Under the pieces are notes generated by a model. The model was not told where the DNA came from. It did not search any database and saw only the letters and a program-made list of their open reading frames with translations. Positions 5,297 through 57,574 of a DNA stretch of 64,000 nt are shown piece by piece. The first letter of the stretch is position 1; each line of letters begins with the position of its first letter. The position numbers were made by a program, and so were the translations under genes. This DNA comes from a virus (taxonomy: Duplodnaviria > Heunggongvirae > Uroviricota > Caudoviricetes): positions 81,490 to 145,489 of IMG/VR virus record IMGVR_UViG_3300050821_009413. One strand, given 5' to 3'.

Positions 5297-5571
5297 TAAG
5301 TCCGCCTCCCCGAATGGACTTGTTGAATGATTTCTTCGCCGTCCCGAATGTCTTCACCCCAACGCTGCGGCGGCGCGGCAGGAGCAGCTGGCGGTGCCGG
5401 CGGGGCCTGCAACGACCCGAGGAATGTAACTTCACCGTCCTCGTCCTGCTCTAACAGAATCCCGTAGCAGAAGTTAGCGAACCGGACGGTGCCGTTGATG
5501 CGGATTTCCACACGCCCACTCGGCCCGTTCATGTTCCGTTTAGGGGCCGGTTTCTTAGCGCGCGTCGCCAT
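5296..5571 (-). CDS. hypothetical protein
   Basis: 91-aa ORF whose start abuts the upstream gene. It is Pro/Ala-rich. Confidence 0.3.
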   Translation of the reverse strand: MATRAKKPAPKRNMNGPSGRVEIRINGTVRFANFCYGILLEQDEDGEVTFLGSLQAPPAPPAAPAAPPQRWGEDIRDGEEIIQQVHSGRRT

Positions 5572-5616
5572 TTGTTACCTCTTCGTGGGGGCGACCTGGG
5601 TGGTGCCGTCGAACTT

Positions 5617-6027
5617 TTATTGTCCCCGGTGAGGTGCCCGCGGCGGCGCAGGCACGCTCGGAACTTGCCGGTTCGGTTGCGCCCGCGCACCGCGCCGACC
5701 GATAGAGCCACGCACCGGCTTATTTTTCTGGGTGCCCGGAATCTTCGTGTAACCGGCAGGTGTCTGACCGGACGGGGTGACTTTCATCAGGCCGCGGGGC
5801 AGCGAACGGTCATCGCCGGCGGCGTTCTTCTCGTTCAAGTCCCTCATCTGCCCGGCCAGGTCGGCGGCAGCTTTCATCGCCTCAATGAAGTGCGGAACGT
5901 CATCGGGATGCACATGGCGGGGCAGCTGAATGACAGCGTCGGGGCCGACGCTGATCTGCCACGCCCCGTGCGTCACCAAATTCCACCCATTGGGGTAGGC
6001 GTGGATCTCGGTTTGGGTTTCGGTCAT
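5617..6027 (-). CDS. hypothetical protein
   Basis: 136-aa ORF with a protein-like N-terminal half. Confidence 0.4.
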   Translation of the reverse strand: MTETQTEIHAYPNGWNLVTHGAWQISVGPDAVIQLPRHVHPDDVPHFIEAMKAAADLAGQMRDLNEKNAAGDDRSLPRGLMKVTPSGQTPAGYTKIPGTQKNKPVRGSIGRRGARAQPNRQVPSVPAPPRAPHRGQ

Positions 6028-6245
6028 GTCGGATCACCTCGCTTGCTGCGTAAACTTTCCGCAGTGAAATCCGGGCGAGACACCAACGGCACATGCTTAC
6101 GGCACACCGCGAAGTTTTTGATGACAGTGAAAGCTGGGGTCCGTTTACCTAGATTGACACACGCCGCGCAATGGATCGTGACGTGCGATACCTGCTCTAG
6201 ACGCTCGAAAATTTCCTCAGCCACGACCTGATTGTCGCAGCACAA
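6024..6245 (-). CDS. hypothetical small Cys-containing protein
   Basis: 73-aa ORF with CAACVNLGK...CRKH, overlapping neighbours by 4 bp. Confidence 0.3.
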   Translation of the reverse strand: MCCDNQVVAEEIFERLEQVSHVTIHCAACVNLGKRTPAFTVIKNFAVCRKHVPLVSRPDFTAESLRSKRGDPT

Positions 6246-6730
6246 TCCAACTTTTCAGGACCGTTGGGTTGCGTGTCGTGTACAGCAGCTCCCCCGCGCG
6301 GTAGAAGCCGGCGTCCCGAATCTTTCCGGTGATCTGGTTGTAGTTGACGATTATCTTGTCGTCACCGCGGACCAGCACCTTGTGGCGACGCCAAAAGAAC
6401 AGGTTCATGGTCGCCGCCTTTCATGCTGCCGGTTCTCCGGGTGTCCCACGATGCCACACAACCTTGCCTATCGGTACGTGGGTGTAAATGAATGTGGACC
6501 CGAGTTGACACAGGTATTCGTAACTCCGCCCGACTTTACAAGGCCTGCTGCGCGGGGTGTGGTCCGGGGTCTCCGACTCGGCGGACCTCGGGGGTTCGGT
6601 GGGCATTGGATGTTCAGAAAACATAGCTGTCACCGGCTTCGTCAGAGCACTTTGATCCAAGGTAGGAGTGGCAGGCGTCACAGACTTGGAGGCGCGCCGG
6701 GCGCGCCTCCAAGAGGTGAAAAATTTAGTC

Positions 6731-6840
6731 CCGGGACGGCGATCGCGGTGTGGGCGGCGCGTCGCTGTTGGCCGCCCCGGAAGTTAGGCCGGGGACGGTG
6801 GCTTCATCTTGGGTATCACGTTAAACCTGGCCGTCCCCGG
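6731..6840. repeat. two tandem GC-hairpin repeat copies (6731-6780 and 6788-6840)
   Basis: CCGGGACGGCG...GGCCGCCCCGG, then GGCCGGGGACGGTG...TGGGTATCACG...GGCCGTCCCCGG. Confidence 0.5.
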
Positions 6841-22061: not shown

Positions 22062-23198
22062 TCAGGAAATCTGTGCGGCGTATTGCTGCAGCGCCTCGAA
22101 TTGTTGTTGCAAGGTAGCTAGCACCTCGGCGGGGGCCGGGGATGTAATGTTTTCGATAGCTTCAGCTAACTCGGTCAACGCTGCTTGCACCTCCGGGATG
22201 CCGAGACCTGCACGTAACGGTCCAGAAGAAACTTGCATAGGAGACTCCGGCGGCGGTGTTTTAGGTACGGTGTTACGAGTCAGCCACCACCATCCGGTGC
22301 CATCACCGAGTGGCCTGTTCTGATGGTCACGCCGCCGGGATTCGCCGAGGATGCTGGGAGCGTGGACCAGCGGTCCTTTCGCTAACAGGATGCCGTCGGG
22401 CAGGACAGCGATGTTATGTGAGGTGTGGGCGGTGCCGTAGATCGGGACCCGCGACGACGGCGGCCAGTGGTGTCCCCTCTCGGCTGGGCCGGTCACCTGG
22501 CCGAAGATCTCACCGCCCAAGGTTTCAATGTCAGCGTCGGTGAGGTTAGATTCGACGGCGAAGATGTCGCCCTGCCGTTCGACCTGTATGCCGCCGGCTT
22601 CGGCGTCCACCACCGATGGTGGTTTCAACGCTTCGCGGGCCTCGGCGATGCCGCTGACCGGGTGGGGTAGGCGGCACAGGAAGTACAGCGGCGGCTCTTC
22701 CTGATCGTCGTACCCGGACAGGTAGTAGCGGTCGCCGATCGTGAACACCGACTCCATCGCTTCGCTGGTTTCGATGACTTTCGGGGCCGGGTCTTTAGGT
22801 GATCGTGCTTGGCGGAACGCTTCCCTGGCGTAGGGGAGCACGGGGGCGTGAGCCTTTTTGGCTTCATGCATGAACCGGTCGCGCCAGTATTGCGCCGGGA
22901 TTGTCGGGTGCGAAGCCATCGGTGTGTCCAGGCTTAGGAGGTAGACGCCGTTGTCGCGTTGCGCTAGCTGCCATCCGCCGGTTCTGCGGTACAGCTGGTG
23001 GTTCACGATGTACAGGTAGTTTCTGTAGTTCGTGACCCAACGTCCGTCGTCTTCTTCTCCGCGCAGGTATGCGCGGAGACATTCGTCGGCTTCTTTGAAG
23101 TAGTCCGGTTCTTCGTCCGGTTGCGCGTCGGGTTCCGGTTCGGGTGACAGCCCAAGAACCCCGCGGATGCGGTCCCGCATGTAATCGTAGAACGGCAT
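22062..23198 (-). CDS. hypothetical protein
   Basis: 378-aa ORF with a globular-like composition and no motif I can recognise. Confidence 0.5.
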   Translation of the reverse strand: MPFYDYMRDRIRGVLGLSPEPEPDAQPDEEPDYFKEADECLRAYLRGEEDDGRWVTNYRNYLYIVNHQLYRRTGGWQLAQRDNGVYLLSLDTPMASHPTIPAQYWRDRFMHEAKKAHAPVLPYAREAFRQARSPKDPAPKVIETSEAMESVFTIGDRYYLSGYDDQEEPPLYFLCRLPHPVSGIAEAREALKPPSVVDAEAGGIQVERQGDIFAVESNLTDADIETLGGEIFGQVTGPAERGHHWPPSSRVPIYGTAHTSHNIAVLPDGILLAKGPLVHAPSILGESRRRDHQNRPLGDGTGWWWLTRNTVPKTPPPESPMQVSSGPLRAGLGIPEVQAALTELAEAIENITSPAPAEVLATLQQQFEALQQYAAQIS

Positions 23199-23919: not shown

Positions 23920-24384
23920 TTAACTATCCCGGGGTGACCTGGCGGGAAAGCTCATGTTAATGTCTTCGTCTGGTGTCCACGCGCAGTCGGTGTCGTGCCC
24001 GTCCTCGAGCGTGCAGGTATACGGAACACCGTGCTCGTCGGTGCGCGCCTTCCAGCACAGGAACGGCTCCTGAGGCTGCCAGTGGATCCGCGCCGCCACC
24101 AGCTGCGGGCGGTCCGGGCGACCCAACTCCTCGTACCGTTTCAGAAGGAACTTGTACATGCTGCGGGCCGCTTCCTCATCCCGGTACTCGAACACCTTCA
24201 CCGGTGTTCCGGCCTCGCCCCAGCGGACACCCCACTTGATGCCGCCGGCGTACCCGCTCACAGCGTCTCCGGCGTCAGGAGCATGGTGTTCTTTCCGAGG
24301 TTGGTGGCGTCGCAGTCCAAACCCAGGAACCTGGTGCCGCCCATGAACCGCTCGTAGCAGCGGTGATAGTGCCCGTGAGCCCAC
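23920..24384 (-). CDS. hypothetical protein (start probably internal)
   Basis: Overlaps the downstream gene by 126 bp if the longest ORF is used. Confidence 0.35.
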   Translation of the reverse strand: MGSRALSPLLRAVHGRHQVPGFGLRRHQPRKEHHAPDAGDAVSGYAGGIKWGVRWGEAGTPVKVFEYRDEEAARSMYKFLLKRYEELGRPDRPQLVAARIHWQPQEPFLCWKARTDEHGVPYTCTLEDGHDTDCAWTPDEDINMSFPARSPRDS

Positions 24385-25064
24385 AGCTTCGGACAGGTGG
24401 CGTCGTAGACGCGGCGCACTTTGTCGCGGTGCACCGACGCCCCGTACAGCATGTGGTCCGGGAATTCACCGCGCACCTGAGTCTTGAAGTCGGCTCCCAC
24501 GCCAGGAATGTCAACCCCGGTCGGGCAGTCGTGAGCGACCACCACATCAACCGGAACGCCATCATCGCGGGACGCGTACTCGATGTCGTTCAACGACAAC
24601 TCCTCACCGGCCCACCAGCCCACGTTCTCGGTACGCATGTACCTGTCCACCGAGAACGCACCACCCAACGCCATGAACCGTTTACCCCACCACGTCCACC
24701 GGAACCCGCGCGGCAAATGAACCGTCATGGGACGGTCGGGGGAGTTGAACTCGGCGGTACGTGAGTGATCCTCATGGTTCCCGTCCACCCAATAGATCGG
24801 GATCTCCCATTCCTGTGCTTCTTGCTCCACGCCCTGCAAGTACCGGTCGGTCGCCTCGCTGTCAACCCAGAACCCGAAATCCCCCAGGTGCAGGATCGCA
24901 TTCGCACCAGACTTGTACGCATATTGAAATACGGATTTCATCCAGGGCAGGTTTCCGTGGGTATCCCCTACCGCCAAAACAATGTCCGGATGTTGAAGTA
25001 GATCGGGGACGGCGGACGCGGTGTGGGTGCCACGAGGGGCCTGGCCGTCCCCGAAGTCTGTCAT
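24258..25064 (-). CDS. calcineurin-like metallophosphoesterase
   Basis: VGDTHGN...HLGDFGFW...GNHEDH...AHDCP...GHYHR are MPE motifs I-V. The annotated N-terminal 20 codons are a GC-hairpin repeat, so the true start may be downstream. Confidence 0.7.
   Translation of the reverse strand: MTDFGDGQAPRGTHTASAVPDLLQHPDIVLAVGDTHGNLPWMKSVFQYAYKSGANAILHLGDFGFWVDSEATDRYLQGVEQEAQEWEIPIYWVDGNHEDHSRTAEFNSPDRPMTVHLPRGFRWTWWGKRFMALGGAFSVDRYMRTENVGWWAGEELSLNDIEYASRDDGVPVDVVVAHDCPTGVDIPGVGADFKTQVRGEFPDHMLYGASVHRDKVRRVYDATCPKLWAHGHYHRCYERFMGGTRFLGLDCDATNLGKNTMLLTPETL
25004..25053. repeat. GC-hairpin repeat copy
   Basis: GGGGACGGCGG...GGGTGCCACG...GGCCGTCCCC. Confidence 0.5.
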
Positions 25065-25615
25065 GCGCCTAACTTCCTTAACAATTCCTCGGCGGCGATA
25101 ACCTTCGCCTGCTTCTCTAGCTTAAACTGTTCGGCGCGCCAACCGTTCCAAATATAGAGCGGCAGAACGCTGAGTGAGACCGCCGCGGTTATCAAGGCTA
25201 ACGCCCACCAAAGCGAAAAATGGTCGGCTACCCAAAGCGCACCGGGCATGATCGCGAAAGTGCAGGCAATGATGCTCAGCACGGCGGTGACCTCCCAGTG
25301 CCACCGCCAAGTGGCGTAGAAGCACAACAGATACAGGGCAACACCGCCCACAGTCCAACAGGAGGCCCACAGGGGCCACATAAGAGTGTGCGTCATCTCA
25401 AGGTTTCCGCGTTCTGCGCAGCTGGTGCGCCGCGTCAACAACCGCGGCGTGCAGCTCATCAGCGGCGTCGACAGCTTTTGCTGCGGCGAGGACCGCCTTA
25501 AGCGCGACCCACGATAGGGCGTTAACAATTCTGATACCAAGCATTGCTGTTCCTTTGGTTGGCCGGGACGGCAGTCATTTTTTGGGTGCCACGTTCTCCA
25601 TGGCCGTCCCGGCAC
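25061..25615 (-). CDS. membrane protein (likely start near 25395, MTHTLMW...)
   Basis: The C-terminal 110 aa contain four hydrophobic helices. The N-terminal extension is Arg/Pro-rich and probably not translated. Confidence 0.45.
   Translation of the reverse strand: MPGRPWRTWHPKNDCRPGQPKEQQCLVSELLTPYRGSRLRRSSPQQKLSTPLMSCTPRLLTRRTSCAERGNLEMTHTLMWPLWASCWTVGGVALYLLCFYATWRWHWEVTAVLSIIACTFAIMPGALWVADHFSLWWALALITAAVSLSVLPLYIWNGWRAEQFKLEKQAKVIAAEELLRKLGA
25562..25613. repeat. GC-hairpin repeat copy
   Basis: GCCGGGACGGC...TGGGTGCCACG...GGCCGTCCCGGC. Confidence 0.5.
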
Positions 25616-25623
25616 GACTTTCC

Positions 25624-26082
25624 TTATCTACCCATCGTGTAGTGCGGGTCGTCTGGCGGGTAGATATCAACCCGCACACCGTCCAGGTCGGCGAGCGCTT
25701 CGCGGATGAGTGGCTCAACCTCGGCCCACTTCAAACCACCCAGCCCGCAACCCAGCGGGGGGATCGCGACCGATTCCAGCCGCAGATCGTAGAGGACCTG
25801 CCGCAAATCCTGCAGCCCTTCGATGATGTAACTGATCTCCGAAGGATGTCTCCAATCATCCTTGGTGGGGAAGTTGATCAGCCACCGCCCCTCATTTCGG
25901 TCGAACCAAGTCCACATCTTCCCGGTCCGCACCTGCCCGTGCGCGCACGCGCCCTGATAGGCCTCGTTCATCACCGGGTACCGCAGCCGGAACTGCGCCG
26001 CCAACCCGCCGCCCATGTTCCCGACACAGTTGATCGTGTTGATGATCGCGTCGCAGTCGGAATCAAAAATGTTATCCGGCAC
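25624..26082 (-). CDS. macrodomain protein of the TARG1/DarG-like subfamily (ADP-ribose/ADP-ribosyl-DNA hydrolase candidate)
   Basis: AIINTINCVGNMGGGLAAQF...INFPTKDDWRHPS...IPPLGCGLGGLKWAEVE...DIYPP parallels TARG1/DarG macrodomain blocks: a CxxxMGAGIAxxF-like block, a catalytic Lys region and GCGLDRLxWxxV. Confidence 0.7.
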   Translation of the reverse strand: MPDNIFDSDCDAIINTINCVGNMGGGLAAQFRLRYPVMNEAYQGACAHGQVRTGKMWTWFDRNEGRWLINFPTKDDWRHPSEISYIIEGLQDLRQVLYDLRLESVAIPPLGCGLGGLKWAEVEPLIREALADLDGVRVDIYPPDDPHYTMGR

Positions 26083-26202
26083 CGAACACCTCCTTCAAAT
26101 CTTCCTCGGACAGCGACATTGAGATCTCCAATTCGATCTCATCCCGAGTCAGATTAACCCGGGTGCCGCCGAAAAGCACCGAAAAACTTCTAGGATCGCT
26201 GC

Positions 26203-26433
26203 TCATCCCAGGCTCCTTTTTCCTTGTTTGATCAGGCGTATCTGCCGCGAGATGAACATCGCATCACGCGGATGCTTCATCCACATCCACGTCTCGCGCA
26301 TCTGGTAGCCCCAAAATCCTGGTCTCGTCACGGTCCACCAGATTTTCCATCCCGGACCGCAGTACGGCTTCATTCTTCTTCGGGGTCCTGTTGGACTGTG
26401 ATGCCGAAGTGTTGGGCGTTGCGGTATGCCCAC
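26203..26433 (-). CDS. hypothetical small protein
   Basis: 76 aa. Confidence 0.3.
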   Translation of the reverse strand: MGIPQRPTLRHHSPTGPRRRMKPYCGPGWKIWWTVTRPGFWGYQMRETWMWMKHPRDAMFISRQIRLIKQGKRSLG

Positions 26434-26573
26434 TCCGCGGATCCGGTGGCGTTGGTTTCCCAGAATTGGTGCATACCGTGCGGTGTTTGGTGGTAGATCT
26501 GTAACCGGTATCGGTACGCGGCTGCTGTGCAGTCCCAGTACTTGTTGATCCTACGTTCGCCTAGCTCAGGCAT
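26370..26573 (-). CDS. hypothetical small protein
   Basis: 67 aa. Confidence 0.3.
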   Translation of the reverse strand: MPELGERRINKYWDCTAAAYRYRLQIYHQTPHGMHQFWETNATGSAEWAYRNAQHFGITVQQDPEEE

Positions 26574-26885
26574 TTAACTCTCCTTATTTTCGGGATTTGT
26601 AATTCCTCCCCCGGCCCCGCCCAAAACATTTCCGTTACCAGCAGCGTTGGCGGCGGCCTCTTCTTTGGCGTTGAGTCTGGCAATCATTCCGTCGCGGCTG
26701 TATCGCACGCTGACGTAGGCATATTCCGGTACTTCCACGATCTCGATGCCGGGCAGCGACAACAGCACATCGGCAACCCGGTCGACCCAGCGATCCATGA
26801 GATCGTCTTGACTTGCCGTCGTGGGACTGGGGGCCTCTTTTCGCAAAACTTCGGCGAGGCGTGCGCGAAGGTCGGTCATGCCCAT
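26574..26885 (-). CDS. small paralog-family protein (MGMTDLRARLAE start)
   Basis: First of three tandem paralogs. Confidence 0.45.
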   Translation of the reverse strand: MGMTDLRARLAEVLRKEAPSPTTASQDDLMDRWVDRVADVLLSLPGIEIVEVPEYAYVSVRYSRDGMIARLNAKEEAAANAAGNGNVLGGAGGGITNPENKES

Positions 26886-27182
26886 GGCAGTTCGAAGTCC
26901 TTGCTGGTGTCGACGGTGATACGTTCTCGGATGTCGAATTTGGACAGCAGCACACCGGCAACATGCCCAGGCCAGCCGCCATTATCAAAGTCGTAGGCTT
27001 CGGGATCGAATCCGCAGCGACATTTAGGCCAGCAGGGATGGTTGGGGTCAGTGCGTCGTGCGTGTTCCCGTAGTGCGTCGGCGAGGCGTGCGCGAAGGTC
27101 GGTCATGCCCATGGCAGTTCGAAGTCCTTGCTGGTGTCGACGGTGATACGTTCTCGGATGTCGAATTTGGACAACAGCACAT
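26851..27182. repeat. about 105-bp direct repeat, two copies 227 bp apart (26851-26955 and 27078-27182)
   Basis: TCGGCGAGGCGTGCGCGAAGGTCGGTCATGCCCATGGCAGTTCGAAGTCC...GGACA(G/A)CAGCACA is identical apart from 1-2 mismatches. Confidence 0.7.
26876..27112 (-). CDS. small paralog-family protein
   Basis: Starts MGMTDLRARLAD and ends GVLLSKFDIRERITVDTSKDFELPWA. Confidence 0.45.
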   Translation of the reverse strand: MGMTDLRARLADALREHARRTDPNHPCWPKCRCGFDPEAYDFDNGGWPGHVAGVLLSKFDIRERITVDTSKDFELPWA

Positions 27183-27387
27183 CGGCGAGCTGCCCTGCCG
27201 ACATGGACATCACCGCTGCTACACGCTTGGTGAGTTCATCGTCGGTGTCGGCGAAAACGATCCGCGCTGTCTCGGTGAACAGTACGTCTGCGATGCGTTC
27301 GCGAATATCACTCATGAGCGAGCCTGCACGCTTCACAATAACCACGCTCCACCGACACAGCAGCCCACAAAGGCTGCCCACAATCAC
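27103..27387 (-). CDS. small paralog-family protein
   Basis: Ends with the identical 26-aa tail ...LLSKFDIRERITVDTSKDFELPWA. Confidence 0.45.
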   Translation of the reverse strand: MIVGSLCGLLCRWSVVIVKRAGSLMSDIRERIADVLFTETARIVFADTDDELTKRVAAVMSMSAGQLADVLLSKFDIRERITVDTSKDFELPWA

Positions 27388-36646: not shown

Positions 36647-36678
36647 CAGAACTCCTTAAGGTTGATCGTTGATCATTT

Positions 36679-36713
36679 GGGTGGACGGCGGGGACGCGCC
36701 TCGCCGTCCACCC
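36679..36713. repeat. GC-hairpin repeat copy (short loop)
   Basis: GGGTGGACGGCGG-ggacgcgcctcg-CCGTCCACCC. Confidence 0.4.
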
Positions 36714-36722
36714 AAGACCGAC

Positions 36723-37652
36723 TTAGTGCTGCCCGCCCTGGGGGACCACATAGGTTGGCTGATACGGGTTGAGGCCCTGCTTCACCGCCAACGCTTTTAG
36801 ATACGCGTCGATACTGCCGTACCCGTTGATCTCAGCCTGCTGCTGCAACGCTTTCTGCTGCGCCAGCTTCGTTTGAGCTTCAGCAGCGGCAACCTCAGCA
36901 TCCGCCTTCGCCCTGTCGGCGTTAGCTTCAGCGACGCCCTGGGCTTGCAAAGCCTGCGCACGCTGCACAGCAGCCTGCTGCGCCTCGATGGCGTTCTTCA
37001 AGTCGGGATTAACCGGAGTCGGCTTCAGCACAGTCACCTGGAAGTTCGAGAAGTACTCTGTGCCGTTGGTGCGGGCCTTAGACGCCAGCGGCAGCTGCTT
37101 GTCGATCTCCGTACGGAACTCGGTGCGAACCTCCTCGCTGTTCCAGATCTCCTGCCACGGATACTTCTGAGCCACACCGTTGAGCGTGTCCTGGAGAGGC
37201 TGGCCGATGACGTGATTGATGAGCGCTTTCCATCCGTCGCTCTCAGAGCCGTCGTCGTTGAGCGTCCCGTTGTATCCGGCGGCGAACTCTGAATAAAACT
37301 TCTTCAGCTTGTCGCAGTCCTGGGTCAGATCGAACGTCACCGACACTGGAACATCCATCTCCGCCGGGGCTTTAGCTGATGCGACAACCACGTACGGTCC
37401 CCTGTTGGGTTTCGCGTTGGGGTCGTTGCTGGCGTTCCACGCGATCTGGCGTGCGGGGAACTTGAACACCTCGTTGAAAGCTTCGTTCTTCGTCTCCGAA
37501 GGTTTGATGCACTCGGTGAGATTATGGTCGGCACCGGGGAACATCGACCCGTTCTGGACCACGGCCTGCTCAGCTGGACCCATGGCGTGATACGCGCATC
37601 CTGACAGACTGATCGCCGCGGCTGCGGCGATCGTCACTATCTTGGTTTTCAT
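36723..37652 (-). CDS. lipoprotein with Ala/Gln-rich coiled-coil C-terminus
   Basis: LSGC is a lipobox after an N-terminal signal sequence. The C-terminal AIEAQQAAVQRAQALQAQGVAEANADRAKADAEVAAAEAQ is coiled-coil-like (SPFH-like tail). Confidence 0.5.
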   Translation of the reverse strand: MKTKIVTIAAAAAISLSGCAYHAMGPAEQAVVQNGSMFPGADHNLTECIKPSETKNEAFNEVFKFPARQIAWNASNDPNAKPNRGPYVVVASAKAPAEMDVPVSVTFDLTQDCDKLKKFYSEFAAGYNGTLNDDGSESDGWKALINHVIGQPLQDTLNGVAQKYPWQEIWNSEEVRTEFRTEIDKQLPLASKARTNGTEYFSNFQVTVLKPTPVNPDLKNAIEAQQAAVQRAQALQAQGVAEANADRAKADAEVAAAEAQTKLAQQKALQQQAEINGYGSIDAYLKALAVKQGLNPYQPTYVVPQGGQH

Positions 37653-37972
37653 TTACTCTCTTTCGATTGAGGGGTAATCGTCCCCGGGTTGAGGATCGAC
37701 TGGGTGGTTCTCTCGATCAACTTCTCTGTGTATTCGTCGTCTTCGCGACGCAGCAACTTACGGGCGTGAGCGCGACGCTCACTCCTTGATAGCCACAGCT
37801 CCGGCTCATGTAAACCAGCTATACGGCGCTTGAGTCTGAAACGATCCACTGTCGCGTAGATCGTCCAGGAAATCCAGAGCACGACAACGATCATTAGTAC
37901 GAGACGGATCATCAGAACTCCTTGAGGTTGTTGATCATGTAGGTGAACACTGGTTGATGCGCGGTGGCGCAC
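37649..37972 (-). CDS. small membrane protein
   Basis: 107 aa with an N-terminal TM helix and an Arg-rich tail. Confidence 0.35.
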   Translation of the reverse strand: MRHRASTSVHLHDQQPQGVLMIRLVLMIVVVLWISWTIYATVDRFRLKRRIAGLHEPELWLSRSERRAHARKLLRREDDEYTEKLIERTTQSILNPGTITPQSKESK

Positions 37973-38769
37973 CCGACGCGGTTATGTCCAGGGTGTGTAT
38001 CGGTGGTGTAGATGTATCGGTAGTGGTCGCGGAGGTTCGGTGCGTTGCCGGAGAAAATGCCGTGCGTGATCCACAAGCCGAGTTGTTCTTTCGGCAGTCC
38101 GGTGGCTTGGGCGAGTCCCATGAATGTGCCGCCGCCGTCGCAAATGTCGTCCACTACTAGGTATTTTCCGGATTTGGGTAGTTTGTCGACCATTTTGATT
38201 CCGTTGATGCGTCCGGTTTCTTCGTCGCGGTCTTTGTCTGCCCGGTACATGTCGACGCCGAGGGCGGTCGCGGTTGTGGCTGCTCGTTCGACTGCGCCTT
38301 TGTCCGGCGCGATCACGGCGTGGTAGCCGTCGTAGCCGGCGCTGTTTTTTAGCGCTCGCTGCACCAGCGGAACTGGTGACAACTCGGTCAGCTTCCGTAG
38401 GTGGCGGTGAACGATCGGGCTGTGCGCATCAATCCCGATGACTTGTTGCGGGTTCATGGAGTTGATCAGTTGGGAGTAGGTGGCCACCCCGACGGGCTGC
38501 CCGGCCATCGGTCGGTCCGACCTGGCTGCCGGCAGGTACGGCAGGAACAGCATGAACGGTGCCTGCCGTTGGTGTGCCACGTCGGCGAACAACGCTGCCT
38601 GCACCAGGTCGTCGGCGGATCGGAACCGCACATCAGCGATCCACACCGCCGCGGGGTCGCGCACATCAGCCAGGTTGCGTAGGTGCCACTCGCCGCCCGG
38701 ATACTGAAACGGCTCCGCAGCACCATGAATGTAGTCGCCCGGAAGTTTCACCGAAAAATGTGTGGTCAC
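37912..38769 (-). CDS. ribose-phosphate pyrophosphokinase (Prs/PRPP synthetase) family protein; alternatively an Adps-type ADP-ribose pyrophosphate synthetase
   Basis: LPYLPAARSDR parallels Prs IPYFGYARQDR. VIAPDKGAVERA parallels VVSPDIGGVVRA. The PRPP-binding LVVDDICDGGGT parallels VLVDDMIDTGGT. ITHGIFSGNA parallels ATHPIFSGNA. Confidence 0.8.
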   Translation of the reverse strand: MTTHFSVKLPGDYIHGAAEPFQYPGGEWHLRNLADVRDPAAVWIADVRFRSADDLVQAALFADVAHQRQAPFMLFLPYLPAARSDRPMAGQPVGVATYSQLINSMNPQQVIGIDAHSPIVHRHLRKLTELSPVPLVQRALKNSAGYDGYHAVIAPDKGAVERAATTATALGVDMYRADKDRDEETGRINGIKMVDKLPKSGKYLVVDDICDGGGTFMGLAQATGLPKEQLGLWITHGIFSGNAPNLRDHYRYIYTTDTHPGHNRVGCATAHQPVFTYMINNLKEF

Positions 38770-39164
38770 AGCAGCATCAGCTCCCCGGTTATAGGATCGA
38801 GCGCCTCATCTGTATCGGGTCCGATGGCGCAGCACGTGATTGTTGGAACCCCGTTGAATTCGGTGAGTCCGGAGTCGGTGACCAGGAACTCGATCAGGCC
38901 AGCGTCTTTGGCGGCCTGATGAATGGCCAGTAGCTTCTCTTCGCTGTCCGCGCGGACACAGATCTTCTTGAAAGGGCCAGCTAGCCACTCTTCGATCTTG
39001 CGTTCATGGTCGCGGCGAATCTGGTCGTAAGGATCGGAGATCTCGGTGAGATACGGCAGCACCGCACCCAGCGACGCGTGTGCGGCCTGGGCGCACATTT
39101 TTCCTTTACGCATGCCAAGGTCGCTCCGCATCACAATGATTTGCTTAATATCTTCACCCCTCAT
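38766..39164 (-). CDS. peptidyl-tRNA hydrolase, PTH2 family (start uncertain)
   Basis: IVMRSDLGMRKGKMCAQAAHASLGA parallels the PTH2 motif VVRTDLKMGKGKIAAQCSHAALG. The core is about 125 aa. Confidence 0.65.
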   Translation of the reverse strand: MRGEDIKQIIVMRSDLGMRKGKMCAQAAHASLGAVLPYLTEISDPYDQIRRDHERKIEEWLAGPFKKICVRADSEEKLLAIHQAAKDAGLIEFLVTDSGLTEFNGVPTITCCAIGPDTDEALDPITGELMLL

Positions 39165-39360
39165 TCCAAAAGTCTTTACGGTTCGCGAGTCTTCGTGCCC
39201 GTTCTTTGCATGACTCAACCTCGTATGGTTCCATTCCTTCGGCGATCTGTTCGGCCATGTCCGCGGCTTCTGCCGCCGCCTGGTCATCGGGGGCGACGAT
39301 CCCCAAATACAACGCAAGGGTTAGGGCGTCGTGTTGTGCATCGTTGACTGGTTCATTCAT
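39154..39360 (-). CDS. hypothetical acidic small protein
   Basis: 68 aa. Confidence 0.3.
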   Translation of the reverse strand: MNEPVNDAQHDALTLALYLGIVAPDDQAAAEAADMAEQIAEGMEPYEVESCKERARRLANRKDFWNEG

Positions 39361-39379
39361 CTTCTACTCCTCTTTCTGG

Positions 39380-39432
39380 TCCGGGGACGGCGAACACGAG
39401 CTGGGAAACATGGCTTGCCTGGCCGTCCCCGG
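39380..39432. repeat. GC-hairpin repeat copy
   Basis: TCCGGGGACGGCG...GGCCGTCCCCGG. Confidence 0.5.
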
Positions 39433-39436
39433 TGGC

Positions 39437-39889
39437 TCATTTAATGTCCTCCCCGACCGACAGTAGCCGCAGCACCGGCAGGTGCCGCAGATGAGCGGTG
39501 ATGTGCGGGAGGTGGCGCATAAGGTGAGCGAACCTCGCTATCCGCAGGATCCGCAGCGCGGTCAGGTTCTCGCCCAACGGCAGCGCGGCCAGGCCGACGA
39601 TCAGGATGTCGGCGACGAGCCAGAAATCGCTCCACCCGCGCCATCCGCCCCAACCCGTTTTGATTCGGGACCAGATTTTGATGGTAACTTCAGCGACGAA
39701 GAACCACACGATCGTGGTGTCGATCATCTCGAGAATGTCATCATGCTTGAACTCTAGCCATGCTGCGACGAGGAAGTTGATGAGGATAGCGGCGATGACG
39801 ACGCGGTTGAACCAGCTGTGGTGTTTGGTGGTGACAGCTGCGTCGTGGGTGGTCAAGGTTACTCCTGTCTGTTCCAGTGTTTGTGCCAT
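39437..39889 (-). CDS. voltage-sensor domain (S1-S4) only membrane protein, Ion_trans-like without pore domain
   Basis: There are four TM helices. S2 FFVAEVTIKIW matches the F-x-x-E-x-x-x-K motif. S3 carries WSDFWLVADILIV. S4 LRILRIARFAHLMRHL has Arg at every third position. Confidence 0.6.
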   Translation of the reverse strand: MAQTLEQTGVTLTTHDAAVTTKHHSWFNRVVIAAILINFLVAAWLEFKHDDILEMIDTTIVWFFVAEVTIKIWSRIKTGWGGWRGWSDFWLVADILIVGLAALPLGENLTALRILRIARFAHLMRHLPHITAHLRHLPVLRLLSVGEDIK

Positions 39890-40069
39890 CCCATAATTAT
39901 ATCACACCGGGCTGGCACCCTATGGTGGGTGAGGGCAACTCTTTGGCGGAAACCAGGATTGGAAAATCCTCCCCCGACTCCCACCAAAACATTGCCGTTA
40001 CTCAACGTTTACAACCGGAGTGGCGACAAATATTTGGAGATCATTCATGGTCTGGCCGCTCCGGAAGTC

Positions 40070-40712: not shown

Positions 40713-40778
40713 GCTTTTTGTCCTTTCGTTTTCGGTTTTTGGTTTCCTCCCCCGGCCCCACCCAAAACATTACCGTTA

Positions 40779-41018
40779 CTAGATTTCCTGTTCGCGCACG
40801 TAACGGTACATAACCGTAGCTGCACGATCCGATATGTCGACACCTCTGACGAACAGGAAGTCCTCAAGGCTGTCCATATTGACGGCGCGACCCGCTAGGC
40901 CCACGTAATCCAGGTATTCGTCCCACAGGTCATCCAATTGACCCTGCTGGTACTCATGAAAGCTGTCCCCGCCGATCTCGATCATTAGTCGCCCCAGTCG
41001 AAGATGCGGCCAACCCAC
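40779..41018 (-). CDS. hypothetical small protein
   Basis: 79 aa, acidic. Confidence 0.35.
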   Translation of the reverse strand: MGWPHLRLGRLMIEIGGDSFHEYQQGQLDDLWDEYLDYVGLAGRAVNMDSLEDFLFVRGVDISDRAATVMYRYVREQEI

Positions 41019-46410: not shown

Positions 46411-47328
46411 CTACGCCGATCGGGCGCGGCGACGCGGAACCGCAACAGTAACCGCGGTTTCAGCTGCAGGCTTCCTGCCCTTAGCCGGGTGCTTACGCTT
46501 ACTGGAAGCCTTACCGGCGACCATTTCTGCCGTCTTCTCCAGCTTCGCCAGCAGATCGCCCACCTCTTCGGCGGCTGCGGCTTCCTCACGTGGGGTCATC
46601 GGAACGCCGGTCACTTTCGACTCGATCAGTTCCTCAACCCTCGCCGCGTAGGTGTCGACGTGCGCGTCTTCCTCGAAGGAGGCGGTCATGTCGTCCACGA
46701 TGCCGCCCAGGATCTTCACGTACTGCCTACTTGGTGTGACTTCGCGCCGTAACGACTCGAAATCGGCGTTACGCAGATCTTCTGGCCACATCAAGTTCTG
46801 CACGACCAGCACTTTGTTGCCGCGGACCGTTTCGGGCCGCAAAGCCGCTAAGTGTGTTTTGCTGCGCAGCGTATACTGGATGATCCCGGATTTGCCTTTC
46901 TCTTCCAGCACGGCCAGCAGTGTGGCGTACGCTTCCTCGGTCTGCCGGGGGCTGGGGCTGGACAGGTCAGGCTCGAGAAAGTAGCTCTTCTCTGAGAACA
47001 GAGGGTTGATGAGAGCGGTTTCAACGAAATGCTGCACGTCGAGGGTTCTGCCGCAATCCACCTGAACCTGCTCCAGCTCCTCATCTGTCAGCAGGATCGT
47101 TTCGCCGTCGCGTACCACGCCGCGGGTGGTTTCGCCTCGGCAGCTTGCTCCGCAGTCCTCGCAGATGTACGGGGCTTTGATCCGTGACTGGGTGCCGTCG
47201 TCGTGGACGTGGAAACTGTTGAATTCCACGCCCCGGTCGCCGGATGTTGCGTACATTTTGACTGGGCAGCTGACCAGTCCGAGGCTGATCGCGGTGTTCG
47301 CTATCGAACGTGTTGGTGTTGGTGCCAT
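46411..47328 (-). CDS. ku: Ku-like DNA end-binding protein
   Basis: The N-terminus NTAISLGLVSCPVKMYATSGDRGVEFNSFH is a typical bacterial Ku core, about 300 aa, with a basic Lys/Arg C-terminal tail. Confidence 0.8.
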   Translation of the reverse strand: MAPTPTRSIANTAISLGLVSCPVKMYATSGDRGVEFNSFHVHDDGTQSRIKAPYICEDCGASCRGETTRGVVRDGETILLTDEELEQVQVDCGRTLDVQHFVETALINPLFSEKSYFLEPDLSSPSPRQTEEAYATLLAVLEEKGKSGIIQYTLRSKTHLAALRPETVRGNKVLVVQNLMWPEDLRNADFESLRREVTPSRQYVKILGGIVDDMTASFEEDAHVDTYAARVEELIESKVTGVPMTPREEAAAAEEVGDLLAKLEKTAEMVAGKASSKRKHPAKGRKPAAETAVTVAVPRRRARSA

Positions 47329-53125: not shown

Positions 53126-54049
53126 TTAGGCGGGGAGTTCCACGCTGTGCGCGGCTTTCATCGCCTCGTAAGCGCGTTCCCAGCAGTCGCAGTCGTCGTT
53201 CTGGAGCTTGCCGCAGTCCTGGCAGGTTTCGCAGAATTTGCAGTAACCCATCTTGTTGACCTCGCCCATCCCGCAGAACGCGCAACGCCAATCCAGTTCA
53301 TCGGCGCTGCTGCCGATGAACACCTCCGCGGATTCCTCCGCCGATTTGGCCACATTGGCACCCATCATGCCGTCTTCCTGCTTGATCCACGTTTTCGTCG
53401 CCGAGTCATAAACATGAACCCCGTTCCTCGCCGAGACCGTCGCCTTAGATTTCGACTGGTTACGCAGCCACCGCGGCAACGCCTCCCGATAATCGGAGTT
53501 CGAATGCCACAAACCGGTTTCTTGGTCCCACTCGCCCAGTGACGCGTTAATAAGGTACGCGCTGGACTGGTAACGCGGGTCGACGGTGAGGATGGCCAGC
53601 TTGTTGCCCAAACCGCACCACTTCGTCAACTCCTTTTGGACACTAATTTTGTCCAGGTTCGCGAACCTGCCGGGCAGCACTTCGTCGGCGAACTTCCTGG
53701 TGTCTGAACGGTCATCACCCTTCAATGGCTGCGCCTCAGGTTTAGTGAGGATACCGTTGTGCGCGACCACCGTTTTGTGGCTCCCGCCGACGATGAACGG
53801 ATGAACGTTGCTGACGCTGACGCTGCCGTGCGTGGCCAGCCGCGAATGGAACAACGCCGCACCATCATATTTTCGGCGGGCTTTGATGAAACTCTCCAAC
53901 GCAACCTCAACTTTGAGGTCGCGGCCCATGATTATCATCTCTTTGTGGGCGATGGCCCAGCCGGACCCGTGTGGATTGGAGATGCCGCCGTTCAGCAGGC
54001 CGTCTTCGTCCACATCGTGGCCCGGCGGAAGGTAACTCAACATACACAT
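53126..54049 (-). CDS. Ntn-hydrolase / class-II glutamine amidotransferase-like protein (paralog) with C-terminal Cys-rich zinc module
   Basis: MCMLSYLPPGHD...HGSGWAIA...HSRLATHG closely parallels 50236-51354. The C-terminus carries CAFCGMGEVNKMGYCKFCETCQDCGKLQNDDCDCW. Confidence 0.65.
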   Translation of the reverse strand: MCMLSYLPPGHDVDEDGLLNGGISNPHGSGWAIAHKEMIIMGRDLKVEVALESFIKARRKYDGAALFHSRLATHGSVSVSNVHPFIVGGSHKTVVAHNGILTKPEAQPLKGDDRSDTRKFADEVLPGRFANLDKISVQKELTKWCGLGNKLAILTVDPRYQSSAYLINASLGEWDQETGLWHSNSDYREALPRWLRNQSKSKATVSARNGVHVYDSATKTWIKQEDGMMGANVAKSAEESAEVFIGSSADELDWRCAFCGMGEVNKMGYCKFCETCQDCGKLQNDDCDCWERAYEAMKAAHSVELPA

Positions 54050-54080
54050 ATAGGTGCCTCCGTTCGTTTTGTTCTAGGTG

Positions 54081-55010
54081 TCAGGATTGTTTGAGGATTT
54101 CGCGGTAAAGGTGCGTGTAGTTGTGCTTGAGCACCCAATCGGTGAACTGGTCCCACCCCAGCGCGCGGCCCTTCAAAACGTCCACAGCTGACAGGTTGCT
54201 GGTGTATTTCACCGACGCGTCGGCGAACTCCAGAGCCGCATAAAATTCCTGCTCATCCAGTGTGGCTTTGAAGAAGCGAAGCTCAAACGTTTCCCGGTTC
54301 TGGCAGTTCACCGCCGTGTATCGGGGCGTGAGGTTCCTGTCGCCTTTCGCTTGTTCCTTCAGCACACCCTTGCGGGGTTTCCGGAACGACGCCCACTCTT
54401 GCGATGACCTGCGGGCCAGCTTTTCGAGTTGTTCACTGTTTCGGTACATGAACAGCAGCCACATCATTTGATGGGCATCGGATTGCTGTTTGTGCGTTCG
54501 GTAAGACTTTTTACGGAACGCGTCACGCGCCACATGAATATGCAGCCCATAGTTGTCGTACACGCTGGACCCTGAAAGTCTCAGGTTTTTCAGCAGTTTC
54601 GAGAACGGGTACTGCCGCGCGTATTCCAGCGTCATCGGGTGCGTAACGATCTCCACACCGCTGATGCTGCCGTCGTGCTTCATGTAGAGATGGTCTTCAT
54701 GGGCGTCCACCAGGTGCACCGCGTCGACTATCTGGTCGGCCAACCCGTAGACTTCCAGCTCCACACCCATCATCGTTTGAGCTGTATCGCCCTTAAATAG
54801 CAGGTGTGGCCGGTAGTCGTAACTGTGGACGGAGCCATGTTCGGCGTCCGAGCAGCAGCAGCAGCTTTCGCAGTGCCCGTTGTCGCACATACCGAAGCCT
54901 TCTACCCAGCCCCTGCAGTCTTCGCAGTGCAGTCTGCCGCAGTCGGCGCAGCGTTGCATGTAATCGCGGGTGTCTTCGTAACCGCAGACCCGGCACTGTA
55001 CCATCGGCAT
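54081..55010 (-). CDS. amidoligase paralog with N-terminal Cys-rich region
   Basis: HLYMKHDGSISGVEIVTHPMTLEYARQYPF...GLHIHVARDAFRK...MWLLFMYRNSEQLEKLARR...FELRFFKATL. Confidence 0.6.
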   Translation of the reverse strand: MPMVQCRVCGYEDTRDYMQRCADCGRLHCEDCRGWVEGFGMCDNGHCESCCCCSDAEHGSVHSYDYRPHLLFKGDTAQTMMGVELEVYGLADQIVDAVHLVDAHEDHLYMKHDGSISGVEIVTHPMTLEYARQYPFSKLLKNLRLSGSSVYDNYGLHIHVARDAFRKKSYRTHKQQSDAHQMMWLLFMYRNSEQLEKLARRSSQEWASFRKPRKGVLKEQAKGDRNLTPRYTAVNCQNRETFELRFFKATLDEQEFYAALEFADASVKYTSNLSAVDVLKGRALGWDQFTDWVLKHNYTHLYREILKQS

Positions 55011-56730: not shown

Positions 56731-57129
56731 TCACTTTCCCGCCGCGAACTCCGCATTCAACTCAACAACCTTCTCATTAAGACGCCCCTCCATCTCAGCC
56801 AACGTCAACTCCACCCGCTCCGGAACACGATGCGGCCAAATCTCATCACGAAACTCCGCCGCCAACCGCATCCGCAAATTCAACGCATCCAAACCATCCC
56901 CAGCATCCACAGGAACCTCCTCCCACAAAAACTGGACAAGCGCCTCATCCCGGGCACGCACCGCATCCAACCCCAGCCACACCGGATTCACCCGCTCGGC
57001 AGCCCGCTCAATCGGCGACAACTCAGCCATCTCAGTCCTCCTCCCATCCGGGGATACGTTCGATCTCAGGTATGCCCATTTCCTCCCATAACGGCAGGAT
57101 CGAAGGGTTGTCGTCGCAAGCTGCCACAA
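56731..57129 (-). CDS. hypothetical protein
   Basis: 132 aa, helical. Confidence 0.4.
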   Translation of the reverse strand: MWQLATTTLRSCRYGRKWAYLRSNVSPDGRRTEMAELSPIERAAERVNPVWLGLDAVRARDEALVQFLWEEVPVDAGDGLDALNLRMRLAAEFRDEIWPHRVPERVELTLAEMEGRLNEKVVELNAEFAAGK

Positions 57130-57574
57130 TTTCGTAATGCCGCGTCAAATAGCGATATATCCGCCGCTTCACCGACACATCCGAATGAGTCAAACCATCC
57201 GGACGCATAATCGGACCGTCATACCCAACAGGCAAATACAAAGCACGAGGGATGGCCAACAATTCCGGCAACAAGTAATCATCCAACCATCCTGCACTGG
57301 TCTCATAGTGGCGCTCCATTCTAGCGGTGACAACGGCAATTACTTCGCCTGCCGCATAATGCCGACGGCAGAACTCCAACGCCTGTTCATTAGGCGGGCA
57401 ATGCCGCGACGCTGCGTGAAAAGCGTCGAAGTCTTTCACCGGTCCGCTTACGTAATGGCGGATGGACGACACATTCACTAACGACCCGTCCATATCGGCG
57501 ATCACCGCCTTCAATCGGCGCGGTTGCCGGGCCGCCTGGTACAGCTGCCGTACATCATCCAACTCTGCGCTCAT
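57032..57574 (-). CDS. HAD-superfamily hydrolase/phosphatase
   Basis: VIADMDGSL is motif I (DxDGT/S), VVTAR is motif II, and CDDNPS is a motif IV-like DD. Confidence 0.55.
   Translation of the reverse strand: MSAELDDVRQLYQAARQPRRLKAVIADMDGSLVNVSSIRHYVSGPVKDFDAFHAASRHCPPNEQALEFCRRHYAAGEVIAVVTARMERHYETSAGWLDDYLLPELLAIPRALYLPVGYDGPIMRPDGLTHSDVSVKRRIYRYLTRHYEIVAACDDNPSILPLWEEMGIPEIERIPGWEED

Follow-up and report, generated by a model that had tools for sequence, protein, structure and literature searches.

Do the genes of one leftward block in an uncultured phage form a single counter-defence system, or do modules with separate histories lie side by side? The question is raised by a 64,000-nucleotide stretch (the window, here always the whole of the DNA analysed) of IMG/VR virus record IMGVR_UViG_3300050821_009413, in which an unbroken minus-strand (leftward) gene block is present at 24258-39317. 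A first-pass annotation of this DNA described the block as one counter-defence and NAD-metabolism island, in a combination of families that it did not recognise as a described system. The reading that we prefer, at a probability of roughly 70%, is that the block belongs to an uncultured mycobacteriophage, as a stretch of its long leftward arm of non-structural genes, and is a mosaic of separately inherited modules. It comprises a known pathway that is unusually split, an orphan macrodomain of a type already known and a phage Ter operon in a new, actinophage-borne variant; none of its features by itself is a new kind of system. New here are the wide separation of the adps and namat genes, an actinophage Ter cassette with two additional proteins (X and Y), the Saccharibacteria-like relatives of that cassette, and a palindromic element that is translated in frame.

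Setting and source of the block

Gene families were assigned with Pfam, PHROGs, NCBIfam and PADLOC profiles and with matches to solved structures (PDB). Throughout, homology, gene order and conserved motifs are the basis on which enzymatic activities and a role for the Ter cassette are predicted. The profile searches upheld nearly all of the families proposed at first pass: a metallophosphoesterase (MPE), a DarG-type macrodomain, a NAMPT-family enzyme, TerD, a vWA protein, TelA, TerC, a DEDDh exonuclease, a lipoprotein, a Prs-like enzyme and PTH2. Gene calls from adps to namat were taken from ENA metagenome contig ERZ27253637:k141_4970684 (28 kb), which is identical to part of the window, and proteins 100% identical to the TelA and Adps of the window were found on a JGI contig. 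By megablast, the block had no nucleotide relatives among 50,697 phage records, and IMG/VR scans with TelA and with X as queries returned none either; sensitive blastn matched only the Namat region, among the matches listed.

The leftward arm runs on past both ends of the block, with an Ion_trans gene (39437-39856), then DUF932, Ku and others. Because the block is one stretch of a far longer leftward gene run, the ends at 24258 and 39317 are not natural boundaries, and the block edges are arbitrary. The remaining window encodes an Rv2525c-like endolysin and a cutinase-like (LysB-type) endolysin, as well as glycosyltransferases, a PPE-family protein, Ku, an L5 gp82-like protein, DUF932, a PNKP-type phosphatase, RtcB and five tRNAs. 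Most window proteins with phage homologues are closest to those of cluster J (Omegavirus), L or C2 mycobacteriophages. Gene content outside the block thus points to a mycobacteriophage source.

The PPE-family gene (15966-17186, plus strand) matches PF00823 at 3e-42 and also encodes a PPE-SVP C-terminal region. PE and PPE proteins are hallmarks of mycobacteria, and a phage-borne PPE would be unusual cargo, indicative of the host.

A predicted NAD+ reconstitution pathway, unusually split

In the phage NAD+ reconstitution pathway NARP1, a Prs-like enzyme (Adps) pyrophosphorylates ADP-ribose (ADPR) to ADPR-PP, and a NAMPT-like enzyme (Namat) couples ADPR-PP with nicotinamide to yield NAD+ (bioRxiv 10.1101/2024.02.11.579819). 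Osterman et al. reported that NARP1 overcomes Thoeris, DSR, SIR2-HerA and similar defences (bioRxiv 10.1101/2024.02.11.579819), and the DyoEdafos proteins gp77 and gp79 made NAD+ from ADPR in vitro (PMC13232231). By homology, the Prs-like and NAMPT-like genes of the block are the adps and namat genes of NARP1, with activities predicted accordingly. They belong to the same two enzyme families as the NARP1 pairs of SPbetaL1, Bas63, Fado and DyoEdafos, share the mycobacterial host group with DyoEdafos, and are 51% (Adps, to gp77) and 61% (Namat, to gp79) identical to its proteins. Both ORFs are intact.

Adps homologues are present in 1,401 phage records; the nearest sequences known, at 60-64% identity, come from contigs L032, L033 and L034. 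The window protein scores under every NCBIfam Prs cut-off (TIGR01251, 90 vs 113 bits), and on Prs equivalog models it reaches 25-77 bits vs cut-offs of 296-536. It has the motifs AARSDR (residue 81), DAHS (114), APDKG (154), ADKDR (177) and VVDDICDGGGT (205), all of which are kept in the Adps proteins of Thibault, Syleon and Myrna. Assigned by eye and by motif, these appear to equate to the substrate and catalytic residues of the solved Adps (Arg87, His121, Asp161, Lys185, Asp212, Asp213 and Asp216; PMC13586617). For Namat, the top solved structures are 9w5x and 9w5w (2e-128), ahead of mammalian NAMPT (~5e-62); 9W5X is cited in the structure paper on SPbetaL1 Namat. The motifs ATEHS and RPDSGD are present. 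Adps would convert ADPR freed by host NADase defences into ADPR-PP, which Namat would join to nicotinamide, so that NAD+ is restored and NAD+-depleting immunity defeated.

In the window, adps and namat share one strand of a single genome, with 13 called genes and 8.6 kb between them. In every relative examined, they adjoin or flank a single gene. Specifically, adps adjoins namat in L032, L033, Thibault, Syleon and WXIN, and the one intervening gene is RyDEP in DyoEdafos, a macrodomain in L034, and gp262 (406 aa, annotated as an ATPase) in Myrna. Since the closest Adps relatives have a near-adjacent pair, insertion into an ancestral adps-namat junction is the simplest explanation, and gene order across these relatives marks the split as a derived state. 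The junction looks like a cargo hot spot, holding RyDEP, a DarG-like macrodomain, a 406-aa protein or, here, 13 genes. The junction loci lie at 3807-6557 of L035 (DyoEdafos), 10001-12761 of L034, 6001-9682 of L004 (Myrna) and 27709-38769 of the window. Two further differences from known NARP1 loci are a 13-residue palindrome-derived insertion in Namat and the presence of PTH2, apparently translationally coupled, upstream of adps.

A Ter cassette within the split

Six genes of the insert form a Ter cassette (Table 1). TerD, the TerC-family (DUF475) protein, TelA and the vWA protein pass Pfam gathering scores and are encoded within 5.6 kb on one strand. TelA-vWA-DUF475-TerD operons have been described in the jumbo phages CcrColossus of Caulobacter and RHph_Y65 of Rhizobium and in Acinetobacter phage ME3 (PMC7824862). 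The window cassette resembles these operons in its four Pfam families, in its single strand and in being without TerB, TerZ and TerA. It differs in gene order (DUF475-Y-TelA-vWA-X-TerD), in the extra proteins X and Y, in its actinobacterial host and in sequence: similarity to the phage operons is only 17-42%, and the nearest cellular relatives are Saccharibacteria-like contigs. DUF475 is 37-42% identical to the CcrColossus and ME3 proteins and 55% to that of Saccharibacteria-like contig L025. The vWA-TerF protein is 29% identical to CcrColossus gp221 and 56-63% to copies in loci of Saccharibacteria metagenome-assembled genomes (MAGs). TerD is 41% identical to CcrColossus gp219, 59% to its counterpart in L010 and 79% to that in L008. 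For TelA, identity is 93% with L008 and 86% with L014, falling to 68-73% with L024 and L025, which are Saccharibacteria-like. Solved structures gave nothing informative for TelA. In the cultured Mycobacterium and Gordonia phages searched, we detected no TelA, DUF475 or TerD.

Homologues of Y are encoded directly upstream of TelA in L014, L024, L025, L027, L018 and L010. Protein X, a predicted helical bundle with a C-terminal beta domain, has no match in Pfam, PHROGs or PADLOC, and none of ten distant matches that share its C-terminal domain falls in a Pfam family. A relationship of X to TelA as a paralogue was considered and ruled out (hhalign probability 0.85%). A word-indexed search of 5.8 billion proteins recovered 11 homologues of X, and ~45 full-length clusters were found among 1.84 billion representatives; in every locus recovered, X adjoins TelA, vWA and TerD. 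By BLASTP, neither X nor Y has a homologue among the genes flanking the CcrColossus and ME3 Ter operons, and Myrna gp262 is no homologue either.

In a pattern-limited scan of one genome per GTDB species, X turned up in four MAGs only, three of Candidatus Saccharibacteria and one unclassified. The six Ter genes stand together in both Saccharibacteria loci long enough to show clustering and recur together in related contigs. The nearest cellular TelA proteins (68-73%) are on unlabelled contigs, one of which shares Pth, DprA and TopA (49-69%) with a labelled Saccharibacteria MAG locus. Judged by these shared genes, the unlabelled contigs, and with them the closest cellular versions of the cassette, appear to be Saccharibacteria-like. 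The loci concerned are L018, L019 and L020 (Candidatus Saccharibacteria MAGs) and L024-L026. Saccharibacteria are epibionts of Actinobacteria, and genes may have passed between them and the phages that infect Actinobacteria.

With the bacterial Ter clusters (Anantharaman, Iyer and Aravind 2012; plasmid R478), the cassette shares the membrane half: a TerC-family protein, TerD, TelA and vWA. Unlike them, the phage is without the two PRTase_3 genes, HAD, the C-C-bond lyase and ATP-grasp; a search of the block ORFs for PRTase_3, HAD, ATP-grasp_Ter and C-C_Bond_Lyase found none. The bacterial relatives L010, L025 and L026 carry Ter biosynthetic genes, and L010 and L025 have the biosynthetic half; the bacterial loci have two copies of PRTase_3, HAD and the C-C-bond lyase, and L010 also has ATP-grasp.

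Iyer et al. read phage Ter operons as tools of inter-phage conflict (PMC7824862). Bacterial terC, terD and terZ were required for phage inhibition and colicin resistance in the work of Whelan (1995), as relayed in PMC12054061. By analogy with bacterial ter operons, the cassette would form a metal-dependent complex at the membrane of the infected cell and would harden that cell against superinfecting phages or envelope-directed stress.

Separate inheritance of the modules

The block is not inherited as a unit. In L008, TerD is followed directly by Lsr2, PE and PPE genes (4928-6537), with no Namat, macrodomain or MPE at that position. In L009, where X is 65% identical to that of the window, TerD is followed by DUF6197, three small genes and a homologue of the window gene at 22062-23198; Namat, macrodomain and MPE are all missing from this stretch. 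The same cassette thus occurs in both contigs without Namat, macrodomain and MPE after TerD, which argues that the block is not co-inherited. Conversely, the closest Adps relatives have no Ter genes within 10 kb on each side, and no NAD genes are annotated close to the CcrColossus and RHph_Y65 Ter operons. The mosaic character proposed at first pass therefore holds, and the co-inherited single island does not: L008, L009 and the closest Adps relatives show the arrangement that the annotation itself had named as refuting it. Nor is the combination made up of undescribed parts, as NARP1, the layout of NARP1 with an associated macrodomain (NARP1-AP), orphan phage DarG proteins and phage Ter operons have all been published.

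Phage ME3 (L003, 4185-14216) has a complete Ter system, PRTases and HAD included, and immediately upstream of it genes for NAD synthetase and an Appr-1-p-processing macrodomain. It is a second, independent phage case of Ter genes beside NAD/ADPR genes.

An orphan DarG-type macrodomain

Beyond namat, the block encodes a 152-aa macrodomain protein. Its assignment to the TARG1/DarG type was confirmed: the top structures are 5m31 and 5m3i (the DarG macrodomains of Thermus aquaticus and M. tuberculosis), matched at 1e-38 over the full length, and it matches PADLOC DarG at 7e-61 and NCBIfam antitoxin_DarG at 6e-59 (positions 7-150 of 338; 199.9 vs a cut-off of 250). In the alignment to 5m31, N18, the Lys of PTK74 and W77 pair with N22, K80 and W83 of TaqDarG. 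K80 is the catalytic Lys of TaqDarG, W83 has been proposed to stack on the modified thymine, and the DarG macrodomain alone suffices to neutralise DarT (PMC5179494). The C-terminal DarT-binding domain of DarG is absent from the window protein, and a scan of the neighbouring ORFs for a darT partner gave no Pfam match; these two absences mark it as an orphan antitoxin-like enzyme and not a DarTG system. It is alike in this to the orphan DarG-like antitoxins of phages, which have been presented as counter-defences: stand-alone, with the catalytic Lys and the Trp proposed for stacking, without DarT or C-terminal domain. Unlike those, it is linked, via its orthologue in L034, to an NAD+ reconstitution operon. 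The L034 orthologue (63.5% identity) sits between Adps and Namat, and an MPE 42% identical to that of the window lies ~3 kb beyond Namat; Adps, macrodomain, Namat and MPE thus make up a recurring neighbourhood in this phage group.

The likeness to DarG, together with the catalytic Lys and the proposed stacking Trp, favours DarT-type DNA de-ADP-ribosylation. The macrodomain would free ADPR from a conjugate made by an immune enzyme, most likely the thymidine-linked ADPR placed on DNA by DarT; alternatively, the substrate may be the ADPR-1''-phosphate (ADPR-1''P) produced by RES enzymes. Either reaction would undo damage and feed NARP1 with ADPR.

Alternative explanations

Several observations weigh against a functional NARP1 mosaic of the kind proposed. 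Osterman et al. used an operational criterion of Namat at most 10 genes from Adps, and the window pair, 13 genes apart, falls outside it. NARP1-associated macrodomains have been defined by PF01661, PF14519 or PF20016 at most 2 genes from NARP1; the window macrodomain, several small ORFs beyond namat, is too distant, and its L034 orthologue is not. Within Namat, the 13-residue insertion lies a few residues ahead of ATEHS, which holds the catalytic His of NAMPT-family enzymes, and there are three more small insertions, any of which could impair the enzyme. The Namat selectivity clamp is built from aromatic side chains of the SCH helix, which in SPbetaL1 are F392 and Y396; the first is kept in the window and the second is Met. 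The segments read SFTYQM in the window, SYTYQM in Thibault, SYTYQH in Syleon, SFTYQH in DyoEdafos and SYTYQY in Myrna, and the His of DyoEdafos indicates that the second position varies even in a validated actinophage Namat. The published macrodomain phosphatase Adpp is Poa1p-like and the window macrodomain much nearer to DarG, so that its substrate may differ. PADLOC models gave no match to any Ter protein of the window, and the role suggested for the cassette leans on phenotypes of distant enterobacterial ter operons. Finally, the junction usually holds ADPR-related cargo (RyDEP, macrodomain), which leaves room for a functional link between the cassette and NARP1.

For the two enzymes, the competing explanation is classical salvage, in which the Prs-like protein would make phosphoribosyl pyrophosphate (PRPP) and the NAMPT-like protein would make nicotinamide mononucleotide (NMN) from nicotinamide. 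GenBank labels the homologues ribose-phosphate pyrophosphokinase and nicotinamide phosphoribosyltransferase, the window NAMPT-family protein passes NCBIfam NF006629, and SPbetaL1 Namat forms NMN from PRPP in vitro when ADPR-PP is not supplied; offered both substrates, however, Namat made NAD+ only (bioRxiv 10.1101/2024.02.11.579819). The Prs-like protein is also far under every Prs model cut-off and groups with phage proteins that adjoin Namat, the DyoEdafos orthologues turn ADPR into NAD+ (PMC13232231), and we saw no NMN adenylyltransferase in the subset of window ORFs scanned. We consider classical salvage very improbable. A more serious contender concerns the macrodomain, which might be the Adpp of NARP1-AP and not an anti-DarT enzyme. 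In the NARP1-AP layout (Adps-Macro-Namat, as in Vibrio phage Gary), Adpp dephosphorylates ADPR-1''P from RES defence proteins to ADPR (10.64898/2026.01.28.702374). There too a macrodomain accompanies Adps and Namat, the L034 orthologue occupies the very position, the PF01661 match is to one of the three defining Pfam families, and mycobacterial RES toxins that make ADPR-1''P are known (PMC9503650). The window gene itself is several small ORFs downstream of namat, and its product is of DarG/TARG1 type and not Poa1p-like, so that its substrate may be ADP-ribosylated DNA: likeness to Poa1p (6lfu) is weak and partial (1.7e-6, residues 12-50 only) compared with the full-length DarG match, and the catalytic Lys and proposed thymine-stacking Trp are both kept. 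An anti-RES phosphatase is a real but distinctly less likely assignment than an anti-DarT enzyme.

With respect to the cassette, it is unlikely, though plausible, that it serves as a host-fitness moron, giving a lysogen or long-lived infected cell resistance to metal, oxyanion or oxidative stress with no role in conflict. The phenotypes of bacterial ter operons concern tellurite, zinc, manganese and oxidative stress, and TerC proteins are involved in manganese handling (PMC12054061 and references therein); Iyer et al. also suggested xenobiotic resistance in pseudolysogeny (PMC7824862). Against this, the secondary account in PMC12054061 has the same bacterial ter genes conferring phage inhibition, and the cassette lies within a same-strand run beside counter-defence genes, not in a moron-type spot near an attachment site. 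No integrase or repressor was found among the window ORFs scanned (the window being 64 kb of a ~145-kb genome), so that lysogeny is hypothetical. Doubtful to a greater degree is one integrated system, in which a junction that recruits modules for the products of NAD+-directed immunity has coupled the cassette with X and Y, and perhaps the exonuclease, to NARP1. Adps and Namat would then replace the PRTase, HAD and C-C-lyase half, or the Ter proteins would act as sensors or transporters of a molecule derived from ADPR. The cassette does occupy the slot that elsewhere holds the ADPR-producing RyDEP (DyoEdafos) or a macrodomain (L034); the PRTase_3, HAD and C-C-lyase genes of the bacterial relatives, and the ATP-grasp of one of them, are all missing here; ME3 has macrodomain and NAD synthetase genes upstream of its Ter operon; and all genes lie on one strand with short spacers. 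Yet the same cassette in L008 and L009 leads from TerD into Lsr2/PE/PPE or DUF6197 genes and not into Namat, the CcrColossus and RHph_Y65 operons stand apart from annotated NAD genes, and Adps is widespread among phage records, with TerD, TelA and DUF475 missing from all the cultured Mycobacterium and Gordonia phages searched. The insert also holds ordinary envelope genes of cluster L type. On this evidence a mosaic remains our preferred reading, and the integrated system seems a long shot.

Table 1. Positions in the window of the features of the leftward block, with their main support
Feature	Position	Strand	Support or remark
Metallophosphoesterase (MPE)	24258-25064	-	Metallophos 2e-11
Orphan DarG-type macrodomain, 152 aa	25624-26082	-	Pfam Macro (PF01661) 1.5e-14
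Small putative winged helix-turn-helix (wHTH) protein, directly after namat	27459-27719	-	HVO_A0261_N 4e-5, 23.8 bits vs cut-off 35
Namat, putative NAMPT-family nicotinamide ADP-ribose transferase, NARP1 step 2	27709-29295	-	NAPRTase 2e-32 and NAMPT_N
Ter gene 6, TerD	29378-29983	-	TerD 2e-58
Ter gene 5, protein X, 376 aa, unannotated helical bundle and C-terminal beta domain	30082-31212	-	
Ter gene 4, vWA, TerF-like	31257-32006	-	vWA-TerF-like 4e-41
Ter gene 3, TelA	32053-33393	-	TelA 1e-19
Ter gene 2, protein Y, 165 aa, unannotated	33405-33902	-	no Pfam/PHROG match
Ter gene 1, DUF475/TerC-family membrane protein	33899-34987	-	DUF475 9e-93, TerC 1e-13
DEDDh-type 3'-5' exonuclease	35091-35615	-	Rv2179c-like 1.6e-5 (under Pfam cut-off)
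SPFH/band-7 lipoprotein	36723-37652	-	profile matches; lipobox LSGC
Remaining insert, adps to cassette	35091-37912	-	87-aa membrane protein, SPFH lipoprotein, four small genes, exonuclease
Adps, putative Prs-like ADP-ribose pyrophosphokinase, NARP1 step 1	37912-38769	-	phrog_619 6e-73
PTH2 peptidyl-tRNA hydrolase	38766-39113	-	Pfam PTH2 6e-30, 104 bits vs cut-off 23
46-nt palindromic element, GGGACGGC-N10-TGGGTRTCAC-N9-TGGCCGTCCC	25006-39429	.	eight copies in block

A genome-wide palindromic element

Repeat hairpins were reported at first pass, one of them inside the NAMPT-family gene, and were taken to subdivide the island. The hairpins exist, and one copy does lie in namat (28550-28595). They are no dividers: we identified 17 copies of the element across the 64-kb window (783-39429; for example 6792-6837, 14561-14606 and 29318-29363), and it occurs genome-wide and is not peculiar to the block. 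Copies in the block start at 25006, 25565, 28550, 29318, 30025, 33535, 35039 and 39384. All but one of the 17 share one orientation, whatever the direction of the neighbouring gene, and three further copies were found in L008 (3335-4225). An 11-bp GC-rich outer stem is preserved with compensatory changes. The inner part was considered as a conserved stem and rejected, as it has no covariation support; it does hold a conserved 10-nt motif.

Most copies lie between leftward genes, after a stop codon and ahead of the next ribosome-binding site. Three are translated. The hairpin at 28550-28595 corresponds to the 13-residue Namat insertion AAPDTHTTYALPG, which is not in the Namat proteins of Thibault, Syleon, Myrna or DyoEdafos; that at 33535-33580 coincides with a 16-residue insertion in Y that is missing from every homologue compared; and the third forms an N-terminal extension of the MPE. 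The reading frame is one and the same for all three, and it is open in nine of ten leftward copies. A search of the window with Rfam returned tRNAs only and no family for the element, and an IMG/VR scan for the motif gave two matches, neither of which shares genes with the window. In its behaviour the element recalls Rickettsia palindromic elements, repetitive extragenic palindromic (REP) sequences or repeats like miniature inverted-repeat transposable elements (MITEs).

Two other repeats were observed. A tandem 118-nt repeat, 96% identical (26851-26968 and 27078-27195), lies in paralogous small ORFs (26876-27112 and 27103-27387); the matching ENA contig ends nearby, and the repeat probably broke the assembly. 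A second family of ~54 nt, with the core CCTCCCCCGGCCCCRCCCAAAACATTNCCGTTAC, has three copies (26588-26641, 39951-40004 and 40729-40782) and may be a regulatory site in the leftward arm.

Other genes of the block and the leftward arm

A counter-defence role based on NAD and ADPR, as proposed at first pass for the block, fits the Prs-like, NAMPT-like and macrodomain proteins. The MPE is 44% identical to Myrna gp255, and the ORF upstream of it ends in an overlap with its start. Myrna and L034 each have a homologous MPE a few kb away from NARP1, and beyond this loose synteny we found no evidence of a role in NAD or ADPR metabolism. Such a role was considered because the Metis defence uses calcineurin-like NAD+ cleavage. 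The MPE is a backbone gene. The wHTH regulator of the first-pass annotation corresponds to a real small ORF, and its family assignment is tentative: in addition to the match in Table 1, MarR_2 and HTH_IclR were hit at ~0.04, all sub-threshold.

PTH2 is 53-58% identical to mycobacteriophage PTH2 and scores 80.8 on NCBIfam arch_pth2, just under the cut-off of 82. Judged from the coordinates, its stop overlaps the adps start by 4 nt, and it may be translationally coupled to adps. In WXIN, PTH2 lies three genes past Adps-Namat. The SPFH lipoprotein has band-7-like lipoprotein counterparts, 51% identical to it, in cluster L mycobacteriophages, gp50 of DyoEdafos among them. The small insert genes were assigned to PHROG families, and one of the four encodes a secreted 115-aa protein with a signal-like N-terminus. 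For the exonuclease, further matches are PDB 7t2s (8e-8) and PADLOC PDLC00753, described as an exonuclease effector (1.6e-10); the support is weaker but consistent with a DEDDh assignment. Nucleotide signals or nucleic acids might be the targets of such a phage-borne version of a defence-associated exonuclease.

Just upstream of a 68-aa ORF, PTH2 and adps is the Ion_trans-type gene (39437-39856, minus strand). Its 139-aa product matches only the first 116 profile positions (1.8e-10), and this small membrane protein may resemble a voltage-sensor domain. We considered whether it is the counterpart of Myrna gp260, the transport protein upstream of Myrna Adps, and BLASTP gave no match. Accessory genes on the same leftward arm (46411-47328 and 53126-55010) encode a Ku homologue (1e-32), a class-II glutamine amidotransferase-like protein and an amidoligase. 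Genes for repair or supply of RNA and translation components (684-1153, 57032-57574, 59792-61000 and 38766-39113) comprise four tRNA-Leu, one tRNA-Ser, the PNKP-type phosphatase, RtcB and PTH2, a set that suggests an answer to tRNA-targeting defences.

Implications

Overall, the locus indicates that NARP1 can be split well past the neighbourhood windows used in catalogues. A survey limited to Namat genes at most 10 genes away, or to macrodomains at most 2 away, would miss both the link and the macrodomain here. A macrodomain of DarG type tied to NARP1 raises the prospect that reversal of DarT damage could be coupled to recycling of the ADPR released. The range of phage Ter cassettes is extended to a mycobacteriophage, for which Mycobacterium smegmatis is a workable host, and the conserved proteins X and Y are added to the Ter repertoire. 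Were the improbable coupling of cassette and NARP1 true, the cassette might serve at the membrane to sense, export or sequester a molecule that derives from ADPR or resembles a nucleoside; the locus would then be a new composite counter-defence operon and would offer a first biochemical handle on the ligand of Ter systems.

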